Source of the DNA: Candidatus Yanofskybacteria bacterium RIFCSPLOWO2_01_FULL_42_49
Lineage (GTDB): Bacteria > Patescibacteriota > Minisyncoccia > 2-02-FULL-40-12 > GWA2-44-9
Reading direction: 5' to 3'
DNA: 64,000 nt
Assembly: GCA_001795615.1 (NCBI GenBank)
Contig: MGKI01000002.1
Coordinates: forward strand, 2,760-66,759
The notes beneath the pieces were generated by a model. That model saw only the letters and a list, made by a program, of their open reading frames with translations. It ran no database searches and was not told where the DNA came from. The number at the start of each line of letters is the position of its first letter. The stretch's first letter is position 1. The translations under genes and the position numbers were made by a program. This document shows, piece after piece, positions 43,782 through 62,351 of the stretch.

Positions 43782-43987
43782 ACGCGCACCTCCTTCCTTC
43801 GCCCGCCGAAGCCTTGGCGAAGGCGGGGCTTAATCTCAATTATATTCACCCGTAAATTCTAACATTTTGAGCAAATTAGCCCTAGGTATAATGTGGATAA
43901 CCCCTCACCTTTTGAGCAACAGTGGCAAAACCGCTTTACTGATAATTGCTCAAAAGGTGAGGGGTGGACAACAAAAACCGAAAAATT

Positions 43988-50153: not shown

Positions 50154-50394
50154 TGCGCGCGTACGAAGAGGTTTATAACCTTAAACTACCGGCGCTCCTT
50201 CCCAAATTTTTGTTCTTTGCTCTTTTTCCTTTTTTCTAAATCTCCGTACGCTGTTTCGACGGCTTTATTGGCGCGTTTCCATTCTTCGCTGTCTTTTCCA
50301 TAAACATCTTCGGCAATACTCATTGCAGAACCTTCGTTGGCGGCGCTTTGCGCCGCCAACGAAAAAGTCGGTCAATTTTCTGAAAGTCAGATTT

Positions 50395-50505
50395 TGGTGG
50401 GTGCGGTAGGAATCGGACCTACGACCTTCCACTTATCAGACGGATGCTCTACCAAGCCGACGTTACAGTCGGCTCCCCGACCGAAGCGTCGGGGCTGAAC
50501 TACGT
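50395..50505 (-). pseudogene. 3' two-thirds of a tRNA-Ile(GAT)-like gene (D-arm with a 39-nt twin-hairpin insertion, anticodon arm, T-arm, acceptor 3' strand, CCA) lacking its 5' acceptor strand
   Basis: rc sequence gtagttcag[cccc...gtcggc]ttggtagagcatccgtctgataagtggaaggtcgtaggtccgattcctaccgcacccacca. The matching 5' acceptor gggtacg lies about 430 bp away at 50936-50942. Confidence 0.5.
50443..50505. repeat. 63-bp direct repeat, copy 1, flanking the GIY-YIG/tRNA-Ile cassette
   Basis: Identical to 50872-50934 except for one mismatch. Confidence 0.8.
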
Positions 50506-50512
50506 TATTTTG

Positions 50513-50584
50513 TGGGCGTGCTAGGAATCGGACCTAGGACCTCCTTTTTATCAGAAAGGCGTTCTACCACTGAACTACACGCCC
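50513..50584 (-). tRNA. tRNA-Ile (anticodon GAT); CCA not encoded; T-loop TCCGATT
   Basis: Hand fold: acceptor GGGCGTG/CACGCCC, D-stem GTTC/GAAC, anticodon stem CCTTT/AAAGG with loop CT-GAT-AA, T-arm CTAGG-TCCGATT-CCTAG. Confidence 0.75.
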
Positions 50585-50598
50585 ACAAAATAACCTAA

Positions 50599-50862
50599 TT
50601 ATGGTTTTATTTTTATAAAACCATCTCTGACTATTTTTTCAATAAAATCTCTCCGCTTAAGTTTTTTAAGTTTTAATTCAACCTCTCTCGCTTCTTTTAT
50701 GTTCATATATTCTTGAATTAAAACTGGCTCAGGATTTATCATCCTTTTAGTCGTATAAGTCCCCCCGTATTTATGGTGAGCTAACCTTCTTATTATGTTA
50801 TTGGTACTGCCAATATAATACTTGTGACCATTGTCTTTCAAAAAATACACATATCCTTTCAT
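50599..50862 (-). CDS. Small stand-alone GIY-YIG nuclease, YhbQ/UPF0213-like
   Basis: GYVYFLKDNGHKYYIGSTNNIIRRLAHH (GIY...YIG...R); 87 aa. Confidence 0.8.
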   Translation of the reverse strand: MKGYVYFLKDNGHKYYIGSTNNIIRRLAHHKYGGTYTTKRMINPEPVLIQEYMNIKEAREVELKLKKLKRRDFIEKIVRDGFIKIKP

Positions 50863-50871
50863 GGTGTTATT

Positions 50872-50934
50872 GATGCTCTACCAAGCCGACGTTACAGTCG
50901 GCTCCCCGACCGAAGCATCGGGGCTGAACTACGT
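50872..50934. repeat. 63-bp direct repeat, copy 2, immediately upstream of the GIY-YIG start; it carries the 5' acceptor and D-arm half of the disrupted tRNA.
   Basis: See copy 1. Confidence 0.8.
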
Positions 50935-50991
50935 ACCCGCAAATTTCCTCTTATTTTACTAAATAAAAAGGGGCCCGGCAACCCCTATAAA

Positions 50992-53064: not shown

Positions 53065-53166
53065 ACTCCAAATAAGTTATCAAGAATCTGACGTTAATAT
53101 AACTCCTTTTTTATAAAAAACAAGCCCCTCACCTTTTCAAAAGGTGAGGGGTTAAATACTTAAAAA

Positions 53167-56777: not shown

Positions 56778-57818
56778 TTATTTTTTTCTGACAATAACTT
56801 TTTTTACGGCATTTTTTATACTTTCTACATCCATACCGAAATGTTTGATCAGTTCTTCTGCAGTACCTGACTCACCAAAGCGATTTTGAACTCCGATATA
56901 CTCCTGCGGAACCGGATAATTTCGCGACAAAACTTCCGCCACAGCAGAACCCAATCCCCCATTAATCTGGTGTTCCTCCACCGAAACAACAGCTCCACAT
57001 TTTTGAGCCGCTTCGATGATTGTTTTTTCATCTAGAGGTTTCACTGTGTGTGAGTTTATAACCATACATTCAATCCCCTCTTTGGATAGTTCCTCCGCGG
57101 CCAGAAGCGCATTATACAAAAGCATTCCACAGCCGACGATCGCCGCGTCAGGCGATCGCCCTGAGCCTGTCGAAGGGTCTCTGTAAACCTCTGCCCTTCC
57201 AACTTCAAACGGAGTGTCTTTGGTCGTAAAGACCGGGGATTTTTCTCTTCCGACTCTTACATACGACGGCTTGCCATTGAACGCTATCGCAACAGTCGCT
57301 TTCTGCGCTTCAACCGCATCGCACGGAACGACAACCGTCATATTCGGCTGGACACGCATTAAAGCTATATCCTCAAGCGCTTGATGAGTCGCCCCATCCG
57401 GACCCACTGAAATACCGGCATGAGCCCCGATTACTTTCACGGGAACATTGTTTAACGAGATATTGGTCCTTATCTGTTCGTTATTCCTTCCCGGCGAGAA
57501 AACCGCATAAGAAGAAATGAAAGGAATCTTGCCATAATTAGCCATGCCGGAGGCCACTAAAGCAAGGTTCTGTTCGGCAACGCCTAACTCCACGAACCTT
57601 TCCGGGAATTTTTCCGCAAACCAAAGAGACCGAGTTGATTCGGTCAGGTCCGCGCAAAGAACAACGACTCTCTCGTCTTTTTCTCCGGCTTCAACGACGC
57701 CCTTACCATAGCCGTCGCGAGTCGGAAACATCTCTGGCTTTGATAAGTCCTCTATGAGATGTGCGTTTTTGTTTAACATAACTTTAGTGTAAAAGTAAAA
57801 ACGAAAAATGCAAAACAA
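56778..57818 (-). CDS. Transketolase, C-terminal (pyrimidine-binding plus C-domain) subunit
   Basis: Matches the transketolase C-terminal half; it partners the N-subunit at 61455-62351. Confidence 0.85.
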   Translation of the reverse strand: MFCIFRFYFYTKVMLNKNAHLIEDLSKPEMFPTRDGYGKGVVEAGEKDERVVVLCADLTESTRSLWFAEKFPERFVELGVAEQNLALVASGMANYGKIPFISSYAVFSPGRNNEQIRTNISLNNVPVKVIGAHAGISVGPDGATHQALEDIALMRVQPNMTVVVPCDAVEAQKATVAIAFNGKPSYVRVGREKSPVFTTKDTPFEVGRAEVYRDPSTGSGRSPDAAIVGCGMLLYNALLAAEELSKEGIECMVINSHTVKPLDEKTIIEAAQKCGAVVSVEEHQINGGLGSAVAEVLSRNYPVPQEYIGVQNRFGESGTAEELIKHFGMDVESIKNAVKKVIVRKK

Positions 57819-57890: not shown

Positions 57891-58190
57891 TTAGCGGCAT
57901 CTGTCGCAGTCGCCACATTTACAATCCGGCTGGTGAGAGCATGTTTTATTTCCTTCACCAGAAACAGACATACCCTTAGCGGACATTCCGCAGCATCCGC
58001 AAGACTTCATGCCAAATGCCATTAAACTCAAAATGACTGCTGACCACGCATAAAACAACGGGTCATAGCCCCAAACCATCACACCTTTCAGCGCCGACCA
58101 GAAAAATAAAATACCGGCCAGCCACACAAGACCCGATATGACCTCAACTATCCGATGATGGGGACATTTACAATTTCTGTGATACATCAT
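57891..58190 (-). CDS. Cys/His-rich small membrane protein (hypothetical, possibly metal-binding)
   Basis: CKCPHH ... CGCCG ... CSHQPDCKCGDCDRCR. Confidence 0.4.
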   Translation of the reverse strand: MMYHRNCKCPHHRIVEVISGLVWLAGILFFWSALKGVMVWGYDPLFYAWSAVILSLMAFGMKSCGCCGMSAKGMSVSGEGNKTCSHQPDCKCGDCDRCR

Positions 58191-58224
58191 AACGACACCT
58201 CCTTTCTTTAATTAATTATTTTTC

Positions 58225-61092
58225 CTACTCAATATCTGAGCCAAGTACATACCCGTCTAATTCTGTCTGGTTAACCGGCGCAACCTCGTCCCACTTAAAT
58301 CCGTTTCTGGTAAAAGCGTCGACAGAAACAATCCATCTTTTGATATTGCCCTCGAGTTTGTAAATTTTTGCATCTCCTGGAATGTAAATTAGGATATTGT
58401 CGGGTATGGCGTCAAGCTCAAATTGTTTGACGGTTACAATATCTTCCCACTTATTGCCGTAAGATAAAAATATTTCTGCGGTAAGCATCCAGCGCTTCAT
58501 GCCCGATTCGGTGATGTAGTAAACTTTTGTATCATTGTCGGCTCTAAGCAATTTAGCGCGCATATATTGATCTGCCGTGCCGGCTGGCTTTACTTCCACT
58601 TTATTCCAATCAAGATTTAGATTTTGGAATACTTGGGGAGTGGGTATCCATTTAAGCTGACTATCGGGAGTTTGAACATAGATCTGGGGATCACCCTGGA
58701 AACGGATAATTTTAGTGACTGGGGTTGGTGTTGGGGTTGGTGTAGGTGTTGGAGCGGGAGTAGGGGTTGGAGGATTACCATTAATACTCATTAGCGTCGC
58801 CTTAAATAAGTTGTCAGGTATAAAATCGTTTAGAATTGATAACCCCGGTATAAATGTAAAATGCTGAGGAATATAGTTGTTAAGCGCTGTACCCCACCAG
58901 ATTAATCCTTGAAAGTCTTGGCTCCAATTATAATTAGCCATGGCTTGCAATTCATTTGGAGTAGGAGTCCTATGGCTGGGGTTATTAGTGTAAGCATAAT
59001 TATTAACAGCTTGGTGAACGAACCACCTATCCCTAATGCCCGCCAATTGAAATACGTCTTGATAATAAGATGCGTAAGTGGCGGGAACATTAATATCTGC
59101 TGGCTGGTTGTTGATTGGATAGTAATCTATGCTTACTATGTCTCCCCAATCGTATCCATTCATTTGATTTACGCTCAAACCAGGTGCCTCATTATACCAT
59201 ATATATTTATCGGGAAATCTAGTTTTGAACAGATTATATCCTTCTTGAAGCGAAACTTTGCTCCAAGCAACCCCGGTATTTCCTGCTTCTATGGGTGCAC
59301 CCGGCTCGTCTATTGTGTGTATGCCCAAAACACGGCTGGAATTAAAGCATGAAGCGATATCGTTTAAATACTGGGATTTGTAAGCTGTGGCTAACCCCTT
59401 TTCAAAAGGCACTATAGTTGCCCAAAATATATCGGTGTTATTACTATTAGCTTCGCTTATTCTCGCATTGCAGAAAGCATTTATTCTGGCGATATTTGAA
59501 GAATAATTGCCTGATCTGAAATTATTGCTATTGAAGTAATCGTAAAACAGCCAATCGAGGTTATACATAATCATCTTAGCTCCGAAGTCTTGTCTCAATG
59601 ATGGGATATCTTTTCTTTCTGCCCTTAGTGCTGATTCTGAAGTGGGGTTATACCGTGGACCCACCCAAAGGCCGGTCATCTTTGAGGGCAAGCGTTGAGT
59701 GTTTTTAACAAAAACTTTGCTCACTGTTTTCTTCGCGCCATTTTCGGCCGTCAAATTGTAAAGGGTGTCCGATTGAAAGTTTAACGAATAACTATTTCTA
59801 TTGGTCACATCGACATTGCCCGGGTTGAAAATAAGTTTTGCGGCTCCGGAAACTTCCCATGCCAGAACAACCGATTGCCCCGGGCTGGCCGTTGATAAGT
59901 TTGAAGAGAAAGCTTTGATTTCCGGAGGCGATACGCCGAATTGGATGGGCCTATTGTTTAAGACCCGGCTTGTGTCAGCCGTCTCTGCAATTATCGTCTT
60001 GTCCACTCCCCAATTCCCATTTTTTTGGCTGAACACTCCGGGAGAATTATAAATTAGAGAAACCCAATTTCCGTTCTGGGAATTATAGACCAAAATATCC
60101 GAGCGACTGTTGTTGTCAAAATCACTTATATAAACCTGCCAGTTCACATCCCAAACGCCTGAATAATACGCAAAATCTGTGCCGGAACCGTTATTAATGG
60201 CCTGAACCCAAATCCCGTTGGATTTTTTGTAAAAGAAAATATCCGCCTTATCATCACCATTAAAATCAGCAACACTTAAAGAATCCCAATCTCTGTCCAA
60301 GTTTGCAGAAAAAGGATAACTAAAATCACTACCGTTATTTATGGCAACGTAACCGGTAGGAGTATTTGCCGGCCCGTATAAAAGAATGTCCGACAATCCG
60401 TCCCCATTAAAATCAGCAGGATAAATCTGCCAGTTAGGAGACCACTGGGAATTTAACGGATAAGAAAAATCTGAATTTAAATTTCCGTCATTAATTACCC
60501 TATACCATGCTCCGTTGGTCGGATTGTAAAGAAATAAGTCATCGTAAGAATCACTATTTATCCTTGTCGGGTAAACTTGCCAATTTGCAGACCAATATCG
60601 GCTTTGAGCGCAAGAAAATCCATTTCCGATAACACTATTACATTTAGCCCAGACACCATTGGAAAAATTATAGAAAAAGACATCCGAGATTCCGTCGCCA
60701 TTCAAATTCATTATGTAGATATTCCAGTCCGTGCTGAAAGTTCCGGATTCACTATAAGTAAAATCATCGCTGCCATTATTTATGGCTTTGAACCACTGCC
60801 CGGTTGTTTTTTTGTATAAGAAAAAATCAGTCAAGTCGTCTCCGTTAAAATTGGCGGCTTGAACCGACCATTGAGGATCCCAAGAACCATTTTTTTCGCT
60901 GAATGTCCCGGAGCCATTATTAAATTTTATTGACCAAGAGCCAGTATTTTTGTCGTAGATAAAAATATCAGGGAAAATATCAGAAACTGCCTTGGCATTC
61001 CGGTCGAAATTACCTATTAAAAAAGTGGCGAGTGTTAAAATCACAATGAAACCAATCGTTACAAATCGCCATTGTTTATTTTTTTTATTCAT
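58225..61092 (-). CDS. Large secreted/surface protein with FG-GAP/VCBS-like repeats and a (PT)n linker
   Basis: N-terminal TM/signal; at least six repeats of the DFNGDGLSDILLY type; PTPTPAPTPTPTPTPTP linker; 955 aa. Confidence 0.6.
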   Translation of the reverse strand: MNKKNKQWRFVTIGFIVILTLATFLIGNFDRNAKAVSDIFPDIFIYDKNTGSWSIKFNNGSGTFSEKNGSWDPQWSVQAANFNGDDLTDFFLYKKTTGQWFKAINNGSDDFTYSESGTFSTDWNIYIMNLNGDGISDVFFYNFSNGVWAKCNSVIGNGFSCAQSRYWSANWQVYPTRINSDSYDDLFLYNPTNGAWYRVINDGNLNSDFSYPLNSQWSPNWQIYPADFNGDGLSDILLYGPANTPTGYVAINNGSDFSYPFSANLDRDWDSLSVADFNGDDKADIFFYKKSNGIWVQAINNGSGTDFAYYSGVWDVNWQVYISDFDNNSRSDILVYNSQNGNWVSLIYNSPGVFSQKNGNWGVDKTIIAETADTSRVLNNRPIQFGVSPPEIKAFSSNLSTASPGQSVVLAWEVSGAAKLIFNPGNVDVTNRNSYSLNFQSDTLYNLTAENGAKKTVSKVFVKNTQRLPSKMTGLWVGPRYNPTSESALRAERKDIPSLRQDFGAKMIMYNLDWLFYDYFNSNNFRSGNYSSNIARINAFCNARISEANSNNTDIFWATIVPFEKGLATAYKSQYLNDIASCFNSSRVLGIHTIDEPGAPIEAGNTGVAWSKVSLQEGYNLFKTRFPDKYIWYNEAPGLSVNQMNGYDWGDIVSIDYYPINNQPADINVPATYASYYQDVFQLAGIRDRWFVHQAVNNYAYTNNPSHRTPTPNELQAMANYNWSQDFQGLIWWGTALNNYIPQHFTFIPGLSILNDFIPDNLFKATLMSINGNPPTPTPAPTPTPTPTPTPVTKIIRFQGDPQIYVQTPDSQLKWIPTPQVFQNLNLDWNKVEVKPAGTADQYMRAKLLRADNDTKVYYITESGMKRWMLTAEIFLSYGNKWEDIVTVKQFELDAIPDNILIYIPGDAKIYKLEGNIKRWIVSVDAFTRNGFKWDEVAPVNQTELDGYVLGSDIE

Positions 61093-61107
61093 GTTCTGAT
61101 TCTATCT

Positions 61108-61183
61108 TACCTCCCAATGTTCTAAGTTCAGTTAAAAATTTCTGCGCCTCTTCTGGCTTTGGCGGAATTCCGTGCCCCCACAC
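61108..61183 (-). pseudogene. Displaced remnant copy of the transketolase N-subunit 3' end (last ~30 codons plus stop), downstream of GIY-YIG gene 2
   Basis: Minus-strand translation WGHGIPPKPEEAQKFLTELRTLGGKIESEHE* against the TK-N C-terminus WHGISPTKEQGKEFLDELRTLGGKIASEHQ*. Confidence 0.55.
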
Positions 61184-61435
61184 TTATAAACTACGCTTAA
61201 GTCGCTTTTTAAGCTGAAATAAAGCATTGGATCTTAGTTTTAAATTATGTTCTCTTGTTCTAGCGTCTTTTTCGTTATTGTAAGCTTCATAATAGATAAG
61301 TTCAAAAGGCTTTCTGTTTTTTGTGCTTACAACTTTCCCGTCATTATGCTCTGCCAATCTTCGTCTCAAGTCAGCGGTCGATCCCATGTATAATTTGGAA
61401 TCTTTTGAACTTCTTAATATGTAAACATAAAACAT
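61184..61435 (-). CDS. Small stand-alone GIY-YIG nuclease, paralog of 50599-50862; start at the internal MFYVYIL
   Basis: FYVYILRSSKDSKLYMGSTADLRRRLAEHN; flanked by the inverted repeats cgtgcccccacac / gtgtgggggcgtg. Confidence 0.75.
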   Translation of the reverse strand: MFYVYILRSSKDSKLYMGSTADLRRRLAEHNDGKVVSTKNRKPFELIYYEAYNNEKDARTREHNLKLRSNALFQLKKRLKRSL

Positions 61436-61454
61436 AAGTGTGGGGGCGTGCCAA

Positions 61455-62351
61455 TTATTGATGCTCGCTGGCAATTTTACCACCCAATGTCCGGAGTTCG
61501 TCAAGAAACTCTTTGCCCTGCTCTTTTGTTGGTGATATCCCATGCCAGCGAGCATCAAACTCCATTTCTTTTATACCCTTCCCCGGTATCGTATGTGCAA
61601 TTATGACTGTCGGCTTTTCATATACTGCCTTGGCCTCTTCAACGACATCGACAAATTGCTCTATATTGTGCCCGTCAACCTCCAAAACGTTCCAGCCGAA
61701 TGATTCGTATTTCGCCCTCAACGGCTCAAGAGGCATAATGTTCTCCGTCATACCGTCTATCTGTATATTATTGCGATCAATTACTGCCGTTAGATTGCTT
61801 AACTTGTTTTTCCCGGCAAACATTGCCGACTCCCAAGTCGCTCCTGACTCTTGTTCACCGTCGGACATAAAGCAATAAACTCGAAACTTTCCTCGCCCTT
61901 CCGAAGCTTTACGCGAAGGAGGGTTGCTATCCATCCTTGCCGCATAAGCATATCCTGCGGCTTGACCCAACCCCGAGCCCAGCGGTCCCGATGTTGTTTC
62001 AACTCCCGGCAGTCGTTCCCGTTCAGGATGACCTTGCAACCGTGAACCGAATTTTCTCAAAGTTTTCAATTCTTCGATCGGAAAATAGCCGGACATTGCC
62101 ATCAACACATAGCGGATCGGACAAATGTGGCCATTTGACAAAATAAGTCGATCCCTTTCTTCCCACATTGGATTTTTAGGATCGTGATTGAGAACATGAA
62201 AATACATAGCCATAAAAATATCGGCCATCCCCAACGGCCCTGCCGTGTGCCCCGACCCCGCTTCCGTAAGCATCTCAATTAAAAACTGGCGGGCCTCGTT
62301 GGCCTTTAGTTCTAACTCCTTAATCTTGTTTTCATGGATATACTGCGACAT
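61455..62351 (-). CDS. Transketolase, N-terminal (thiamine-diphosphate-binding) subunit
   Basis: GHTAGPLGMADIFMAMY, GDG..MEG-type motifs (SDGEQESGATWESAMFAG). Confidence 0.9.
   Translation of the reverse strand: MSQYIHENKIKELELKANEARQFLIEMLTEAGSGHTAGPLGMADIFMAMYFHVLNHDPKNPMWEERDRLILSNGHICPIRYVLMAMSGYFPIEELKTLRKFGSRLQGHPERERLPGVETTSGPLGSGLGQAAGYAYAARMDSNPPSRKASEGRGKFRVYCFMSDGEQESGATWESAMFAGKNKLSNLTAVIDRNNIQIDGMTENIMPLEPLRAKYESFGWNVLEVDGHNIEQFVDVVEEAKAVYEKPTVIIAHTIPGKGIKEMEFDARWHGISPTKEQGKEFLDELRTLGGKIASEHQ

Follow-up and report, generated by a model that had tools for sequence, protein, structure and literature searches.

How can a gene come to possess two different 3′ ends with a small GIY-YIG gene set between them? 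This question is raised by the transketolase N-subunit gene (TK-N) in a stretch of 64,000 nucleotides (nt) of Candidatus Yanofskybacteria bacterium RIFCSPLOWO2_01_FULL_42_49 (contig MGKI01000002.1), hereafter called the window. TK-N is followed by a GIY-YIG open reading frame (ORF) of 83 amino acids (aa), GIY2, and then by a second version of its own last codons. The explanation which we consider fairly probable is that GIY2 belongs to a homing-like mobile endonuclease cassette that arrived together with a foreign TK-N end, analogous to the mORF hybrids of fungal mitochondria. The locus comprises the following features:

61455..62351, minus strand: TK-N, transketolase N-subunit gene, hybrid (Pfam Transketolase_N, E = 2.7e-63), stop codon TAA
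61455..61558, minus strand: end A, the imported 3′ end of TK-N, encoding ..FDARWHGISPTKEQGKEFLDELRTLGGKIASEHQ and the stop, within a perfect 16-nt inverted repeat
61447..61452, minus strand: left copy of the direct repeat GGCACG, preceded by the TK-N stop and TT and followed by the left cassette arm
61434..61447, minus strand: left arm of the cassette inverted repeat, GCCCCCACACTTAT, ending within the GIY2 ATG
61184..61435, minus strand: GIY2, 83-aa single-domain GIY-YIG ORF, UPF0213/Slx1-like (PF01541, E = 6.8e-18)
61174..61187, minus strand: right arm of the cassette inverted repeat, ATAAGTGTGGGGGC, overlapping the GIY2 stop codon
61085..61183, minus strand: displaced, putatively native TK-N 3′ end (stub), homologous part 61176..61085, frame intact

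Read along the minus strand, the TK-N stop codon TAA is followed by TT, GGCACG, CCCCCACAC TT and the ATG of GIY2 (61435). Behind GIY2, which ends at 61184 with TAA, come GTGTGGGGG CACG GAATTCC and an in-frame continuation; the second GGCACG copy (61176-61171) lies at the beginning of the stub. The stub reads VWGHGIPPKPEEAQKFLTELRTLGGKIESEHE over 61183..61085 and ends in a TAA located within the first codons of a downstream gene for a 955-aa protein. Five independent assemblies show the same arrangement, which rules out an assembly artefact. Stop codons part TK-N from GIY2 and GIY2 from the stub, so that there is no in-frame arrangement of the intein type, and the region 60900-61700 revealed neither an Rfam match at E up to 1 nor a group I intron core.

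The relationship of the two ends was clear at the protein level, where the stub matched TK-N residues 270-298 with 66% identity (tblastn, E = 4.8e-7). Their DNA is 62% identical (58/93 positions). Local alignment of the two cassette flanks gave a z-score of 9.2 over shuffles, and blastn-short detected a 14-nt seed but nothing longer. A duplicated end whose stop codon overlaps the ATG of the 955-aa gene had already been noted in a preliminary description of the window; the duplication is significant at the protein and alignment levels and weak at the word level, and it extends to 61085 rather than to 61108.

The two ends differ in their distance to related genes. By segment, the identity of the window TK-N to its top-10 relatives was 0.88, 0.80, 0.89 and 0.82, and then 0.60 for residues 266-298. 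The attached end is 60-63% identical to the closest relatives, while the gene bodies reach 83-86% there. Compared to the related locus L006, the stub showed 87% aa and 81% nt identity, the attached end 63% and 67%, respectively. Of the 95 closest homologs in the database whose C-terminus is ungapped, 90 were nearer to the stub than to the attached end (mean identity 83% versus 69%). Because the stub is the version closer to the relatives, it is taken to be the recently displaced native end and the attached copy, end A, to be imported. Furthermore, a comparison of 30 codons of end A and the stub yielded 12 synonymous and 10 non-synonymous differences besides 8 identical codons, a pattern expected of orthologs of different species and not of a decaying copy. 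These comparisons mark TK-N as a hybrid, with codons 1 to approximately 265 native and the last approximately 31 codons foreign. The hybrid gene is predicted to work, the native 3′ end remaining as an untranslated stub. The candidate naive TK-N site reads ...GAGTTTGATTAYNNNTGGCACGGAATTCCGCC..., with the native sequence around TGGCACGGAATT and the end A version TGGCATGGGATA.

End A is exactly enclosed by a perfect 16-nt inverted repeat with arms at 61458-61473 and 61543-61558 and a spacer of 69 nt. This repeat accounts for the odd residues FDAR of end A, which are unique among the 95 homologs, 84 of which possess FDY[KNLR]. When the inserted tract was folded as single-stranded DNA, two neighbouring stem-loops were obtained (z = -3.8), of which the first comprises the attached end and the second the nuclease gene. 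Perfect repeats around imported ends may be the signature of fold-back or template-switch synthesis, or they may reflect selection for a stem. A search for the donor with the last 46 aa of TK-N gave three partial transketolases, none with end A, and a search with the full-length TK-N found end A only in a single further sequence (P0125, locus L166).

GIY2 and its inverted repeats

The PF01541 match covers GIY2 residues 1-71. In an alignment of 36 members of the family, 28 columns are invariant, including Y3, Y5, Y16, G18, R26, H30 and E62. Altogether 524 homologs of GIY2 were found, which are approximately 84 aa long, 60-78% identical and mostly derived from metagenomes of the Candidate Phyla Radiation (CPR), and a search with the family profile yielded 3,170 clusters at E up to 1e-10. 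The solved structures nearest to this profile are the UPF0213 proteins 1zg2 (E = 1.1e-9) and 1ywl (E = 4.8e-6), which like GIY2 are minimal single domains (80-100 aa) and represent its best sequence match, while SLX1 and I-TevI matched at E of about 0.006 at best. With the model of group I intron endonucleases, GIY2 scored 25.7 bits, compared to a cut-off of 56. By sequence, GIY2 is therefore assigned to the UPF0213/YhbQ/prokaryotic Slx1-like subgroup of the GIY-YIG superfamily. Many of the relatives matched by the profile comprise 230-340 aa and begin with the GIY-YIG domain, so that the nuclease also exists in longer versions carrying additional, uncharacterised domains.

The cassette repeat of the window is the perfect 14-mer GCCCCCACACTTAT (61174-61187 and 61434-61447), which overlaps the start and stop of GIY2 and is unique in the window. 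Inverted repeats around the gene had been described before as 13-mers, and the repeat as such is real; the quoted 13-mers, though, are complementary at just 11 of 13 positions, and the second of them is located at 61438-61450 instead of 61437-61449. In addition, 80 metagenome loci from other metagenomes with 81 non-redundant homologous ORFs were surveyed. An inverted repeat scoring at least 10 brackets 61 of the 81 ORFs (1/81 in shuffles), and in 57 of these 61 it contains the C-rich core CCCCCACACC...GGTGTGGGGG. Beyond the search seed, the arm positions are 79-99% Watson-Crick with three to four pair types each, i.e. the bases vary. The 14-mer repeat is not due to chance since it is a signature of the whole GIY2 protein family. 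Rather than being a scar left at this junction, it belongs to the mobile cassette itself. In the explanation favoured here, GIY2 is the nuclease gene of a mobile cassette of approximately 0.28-0.33 kb, bounded by an inverted repeat of 10-21 bp with the core mentioned above, that is widespread in CPR bacteria and occurs at many different loci; even the closest relatives of GIY2 (77-78% identical) reside at unrelated ones.

Short direct repeats abut the inverted repeats more often than expected. Direct repeats of at least 4 nt were found next to 25 of 70 repeat pairs (36%, null 4.7%), those of at least 6 nt next to five (7%, null 0.17%). Their length ranges from 4 to 10 nt, and they often overlap the repeat ends. 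At locus L123, two copies of the cassette are 97.6% identical over 331 nt; the identity ends at a TATGA repeat, by which both the stop codon upstream and the start codon downstream are restored. Repeat pairs without an ORF are likewise common in the family loci. Their loops, many of them approximately 95 nt long, are unrelated in sequence, and a shared small RNA was therefore rejected. An RNA stem is also not favoured over complementarity at the DNA level, because the non-Watson-Crick arm positions are not enriched in G:T pairs; in addition, there was no Rfam match.

These properties call to mind an autonomous transposon, in which the GIY-YIG protein would act as a transposase-like enzyme moving the cassette by cut-and-paste or copy-and-paste. 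The window copy would then have inserted at GGCACG with duplication of the target site, and the second gene end would have originated during insertion, for instance by template switching in gap repair, or would have been present before. The terminal inverted repeats, the enriched direct repeats with GGCACG on both sides of the window copy, the two L123 copies bounded by TATGA at different sites and ORF-less derivatives resembling miniature inverted-repeat transposable elements (MITEs) all agree with this explanation, and fold-back synthesis is hinted at by the perfect repeats that enclose the attached end both in the window and at locus L153 (see below). Nevertheless, we regard it as unlikely. 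End A is no local copy, as it differs from the stub in 22 of 30 codons, 12 of them synonymously, and is less similar to the relatives. A simple target duplication would require that in each of three independent genes the cassette hit the precise junction of a tandem duplication that was already there. Moreover, the direct repeats vary in length, and no transposase of a known class (DDE, HUH, serine or tyrosine recombinase) is encoded, the sole ORF being the GIY-YIG nuclease. No GIY-YIG transposase is known.

Two ORF-less hairpins were also detected in the window (43900-43965 and 53125-53151). Their common arm, CCCCTCACCTTTT, is related to the repeat of the cassettes at loci L016, L139 and L165. 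On the minus strand, a T-run comes after the second hairpin, which resembles an intrinsic terminator. One might therefore suppose that GIY2 is not mobile at all but a housekeeping repair nuclease gene in the loop of a terminator-like hairpin, next to an unrelated rearrangement of TK-N. This would be in line with the view of UPF0213 and prokaryotic Slx1-like proteins as mostly vertically inherited, putative repair nucleases (PMC1564403). It is, however, extremely improbable. Native TK-N coding sequence lacks a hairpin at the site, so that a pre-existing host hairpin was rejected as the source of the repeat, and the repeat travels together with the gene in L123 and in L166. GIY2 is sporadic across loci, and syntenic conservation was looked for and absent in 80 related TK-N loci. 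In the literature found, including PMC1564403, mobility, inverted repeats or replacement of gene ends have not been reported for the UPF0213 group, nor was a description of an element of this kind found.

Recurrence in a second lineage, at other genes and at tRNA genes

Locus L166 (P0125) originates from another sample, has different upstream genes and carries end A exactly. The first 513 nt of its TK-N are only 60-80% (approximately 70%) identical to the window TK-N. They are followed by 407 nt of complete identity, which comprise end A, the stop codon and TTGGCACGCCCCCACACTT and reach into the beginning of GIY2, at which point the contig stops. The identical tract looks like a co-conversion tract beside the cassette, from which, by sequence, the direction of exchange between the two lineages is not provable. 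This tract and the sporadic distribution of the cassette, missing in 80 related TK-N loci, both fit lateral transfer with co-conversion of flanking gene sequence.

The same order of parts recurs in other genes. At L163 (a zincin-like gene) and L153 (a methylase-like gene) the cassette precisely separates two copies of the last 50-75 nt, one attached and one displaced. In L153, the attached copy lies within a perfect 11-nt repeat (2679-2689 / 2763-2773, spacer 73 nt), resembling end A, and the remnants in the window and in L163 both start with TGGCACG[GA]AAT.

Genes for transfer RNAs (tRNAs) are a further frequent neighbourhood. A tRNA gene is located within 125 nt in 18 of the 81 elements, always co-oriented with the nuclease gene, and where the right arm ends in GGGG, these bases are often continuous with the 5′ end of the tRNA. 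L104 possesses a tRNA 5′ half beside a complete tRNA-Ile, and L097 a tRNA fragment beside a complete tRNA-Ala. A corresponding site is present in the window itself:

50392..50935, minus strand: comparator tRNA-Ile locus with the 5′ fragment of an odd tRNA-Ile, the GIY-YIG gene GIY1, a canonical tRNA-Ile (50584..50512) and the old tRNA-Ile without its first 4 nt

The parallel drawn earlier between this locus and TK-N was borne out by a 63-nt direct repeat (50443-50505 and 50872-50934, 98% identity) flanking the canonical tRNA-Ile together with GIY1 (50862..50629), whose product is 41% identical to GIY2. The canonical tRNA-Ile is in turn flanked by a 23-nt inverted repeat reaching at least 10 nt past the acceptor stem.

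The well-preserved repeat at tRNA-Ile and a perfect 27-nt flank repeat at L161 are what one would expect if insertion had duplicated a long target in situ; at TK-N, approximately 93 nt would have been doubled in this way and the two copies would have diverged in place. For the TK-N locus this is very unlikely. It is the attached copy, which is under selection, that is divergent, whereas the stub, which is not, resembles the consensus and retains its frame. The heavy synonymous divergence between the ends and the identity of the end A tract in a second TK-N lineage are likewise at odds with in-situ duplication, and the comparisons so far tend to place end A outside the clade.

Some further observations were made at tRNA genes. 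The old tRNA-Ile(GAT) of the window contains a D-loop insertion of approximately 40 nt with two small hairpins (CCCCGAcgcttcgGTCGGGG, AGCCGACtgtaacGTCGGCT), and ARAGORN makes no call for it. The 12-mer GAGCATCAATAA occurs just upstream of both GIY-YIG genes (61455-61466 and 50867-50878), representing the TK-N end (SEHQ and stop) at one site and the break point in the tRNA-Ile fragment at the other. Such a match is expected approximately 0.3-0.8 times by chance, but its position is striking. At L015 (9832-10076), the spacer between tRNA-Ile and tRNA-Ala lacks a nuclease gene but contains the 5′ half of a tRNA-Ala and a duplicate of the tRNA-Ile 3′ end; judging from this composition, it looks like the footprint of a lost cassette. 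At L108, L148 and L159, cassettes located 3′ of a tRNA carry at their far end a 7-nt inverted and then a direct copy of the tRNA end, as in TGGTGTC tc GACACCA. The outermost repeat bases are thus matched to the target, which could be due to a guide-like recognition or to palindromic junctions derived from hairpins.

Proposed homing-like repair and comparable systems

According to the homing-like explanation, the GIY-YIG protein would have cut a naive TK-N allele near codon 268 (TGG CAC GGA). The left end would have been repaired by homologous copying off a donor carrying end A, the stop codon and the cassette, and the right end would have rejoined through either the short GGCACG homology or the stub of the donor itself. 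A homing-like repair of a double-strand break, rather than transposition, would thus have placed the cassette, and the locus would now consist of a hybrid TK-N, followed by the cassette and by the native 3′ end as a leftover stub. Since GIY2 would have to find its site without a DNA-binding module, recognition of DNA structure, as in Slx1, is a possibility.

The closest parallel is provided by fungal mitochondria, where mORFs in atp6 of Allomyces macrogynus and in atp6, atp9, cox2 and nad3 of Glomus create gene hybrids of the order core, inserted foreign C-terminal part, mORF and native C-terminal part, the native copy being closer to relatives (PMC3630166). Their spread has been attributed to the repair of endonuclease-induced breaks (PMC3630166). 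The TK-N locus, with a foreign end upstream and a displaced native end downstream of the endonuclease ORF, shows the identical order, and its stub is likewise the version closer to relatives; L163 and L153 repeat this layout. Unlike the mORFs, the cassette resides in a CPR bacterial chromosome and not in an organelle, its nuclease is an 83-aa domain of the UPF0213/Slx1 type and not a full-length homing enzyme, and its ORF has its own start and stop, a conserved inverted repeat, flanking direct repeats and ORF-less hairpin derivatives. A second parallel is the intronless homing of the Seg and Mob enzymes of T4-like phages, in which a GIY-YIG gene beside a conserved gene is linked to a variant target and flanking sequence is co-converted. 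These enzymes comprise 200-250 aa with DNA-binding modules, and homing normally replaces the allele cleanly without leaving a stub. The cassette shares with them the GIY-YIG gene beside a conserved gene and outside an intron, but differs by its inverted repeats, the stub and the small size of the nuclease. To our knowledge, free-standing homing endonucleases of T4-like phages have no terminal inverted repeats. In REP/RAYT systems (repetitive extragenic palindromic sequences and their nucleases), a single small nuclease gene is situated between inverted palindromic arms (REPtrons), and many ORF-less copies of the arms are dispersed. RAYTs, however, are HUH Y1 transposases which are usually single-copy and vertically inherited. 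In contrast to these and to MITEs, the cassette encodes a GIY-YIG nuclease, whose own gene changes loci and passes from one lineage to another.

Replacement of gene ends is also known from e14 and phage 21, which integrate into icd, and from tRNA-targeting islands. There, a 3′ end borne by the element keeps the gene functional while the original end is found at the far junction. As the layout is the same, it is conceivable that a recombinase acting in trans integrated a module with a substitute 3′ end, GIY2 being mere cargo. At locus L173 (185-1427), genes for a Y1 (IS200-type) transposase and a phage integrase are located immediately upstream of a close GIY2 relative abutting tRNA genes, which would fit such a route. 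Even so, it is highly improbable. e14, phage 21 and the islands use tyrosine integrases and an identical core site, whereas the inserted unit at TK-N measures approximately 0.4 kb and lacks a recombinase. Besides GIY2, the segment 61085-61560 contains no ORF of at least 40 aa with a domain match and no recombinase gene (Pfam), nor are recombinase genes found beside most family members. The only constant gene is the GIY-YIG ORF, which is strongly conserved.

Several points weigh against the homing-like explanation. GIY2 lacks a DNA-binding module of the I-TevI or Seg type, and its ability to cut is deduced from sequence. The window holds just one copy of this cassette type. Among 85 right flanks of the family, no common target or cleavage motif was found; GGCACG occurred in just two (background 0.8%), and consequently no general motif is claimed. 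A donor allele of end A was not found, the only carriers being the window genome and L166. In L166, the contig ends within the first bases of GIY2, so that its 3′ side is unseen, and the locus could instead be partly chimeric in assembly, or represent a window-like genome that took up foreign DNA upstream. The homing model does not account for the perfect repeats enclosing the imported ends (16 nt in the window, 11 nt in L153), which, together with the direct repeats and the ORF-less derivatives, indicate an additional transposition-like or fold-back step outside the homing model.

A more far-reaching reading can be put forward. It regards the cassettes as an unrecognised class of ultra-small (approximately 0.3 kb) autonomous mobile elements whose sole gene encodes an 84-aa GIY-YIG nuclease of the UPF0213/Slx1 type. 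The nuclease would recognise or resolve the structure of its own terminal repeats, make short target duplications and spawn MITE-like hairpins, and within genes or tRNAs the element would persist by carrying a replacement gene end. As a whole, this reading is tentative and its correctness rather doubtful. If it were true, the cassettes would be the smallest autonomous DNA elements known, and a family of 'repair' nucleases with thousands of clusters would be largely selfish.

There is a real chance that the cassettes represent a new class of minimal mobile element. The cassette family is large and apparently undescribed in bacteria, and with it the strategy of combining an endonuclease gene with a replacement gene end, known from fungal mitochondria and phages, would be extended to the chromosomes of CPR bacteria. 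A concrete and testable role would be gained for some of the minimal GIY-YIG proteins in the UPF0213/YhbQ group, which is very large and whose function is obscure. Hybrid gene ends, orphan fragments of genes and tRNAs and hairpin repeats in CPR genomes, otherwise read as annotation noise or misassembly, would find an explanation, and very local horizontal transfer of a few hundred bases within essential genes would have a route. Practical interest would also attach to a nuclease this small that locates specific sites with no DNA-binding domain, possibly by means of DNA structure.

Layers between TK-N and TK-C

Downstream of the stub, the minus strand continues with the 955-aa gene, a gene for a 99-aa Cys-rich protein and the gene of the transketolase C-subunit (TK-C):

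58225..61092, minus strand: gene of a 955-aa surface protein with FG-GAP Pfam matches and a PT linker
57891..58190, minus strand: gene of a 99-aa Cys-rich membrane protein, no Pfam match
56778..57818, minus strand: TK-C, transketolase C-subunit gene (Pfam Transket_pyr and Transketolase_C)

Genes and domains at the locus agree with those given in the preliminary description, as judged from the ORF list and Pfam matches. The true start of TK-C is probably 57779, since homologs align starting at MLNKNAHL.

The separation of TK-N and TK-C had been attributed to one insertion of 3.6 kb between genes that are normally adjacent. To examine this, the window proteins were mapped onto the 80 related TK-N loci. 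TK-N and TK-C are at most 60 nt apart in just 24 of 67 related loci. A homolog of the Cys-rich gene (identity up to 56%) lies between them in 17 of the 67, within the window's clade; as homologs occupy the same spacer there, the Cys-rich gene is regarded, on this synteny, as its ancestral occupant in the clade. The combination of GIY2 and the 955-aa gene has no counterpart in the 80 loci. GIY2 was absent from the TK-N site in all of them, and so was the 955-aa gene, which was seen solely in contigs of the same genome (L001-L005). Because the latter is located 3′ of the native stub and outside the duplicated ends, its position marks it as a lineage-specific insertion and as an event distinct from that of GIY2. 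The newest layer comprises approximately 385 bp (61174-61558), namely the foreign TK-N 3′ end, the stop codon and GIY2 within the perfect 14-bp inverted repeat. Thus, while the idea that a small GIY-YIG gene marks an insertion which brought a replacement gene end holds, the single large event is to be replaced by three unrelated layers.

Two related loci show other arrangements at the same gene. At L052 (5995-11752), approximately 4.4 kb with genes for membrane proteins (DUF2339/DUF3999) separate a complete TK-N from a displaced 3′ half of TK-N behind it (residues approximately 164-298, 62% identical), with no recognisable nuclease or integrase; by its layout, this is a larger insertion with a replacement end. 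At L072 (6855-7215), a 94-aa GIY-YIG ORF of a different subfamily is positioned directly 3′ of TK-N in another lineage. Its flanks are each palindromic (GTCATTCCTGCGAAAGCAGGAATCC, TGGATCCCCGCCTGCGCGGGGATGAC) and mutually inverted, and the TK-N end is present without duplication.

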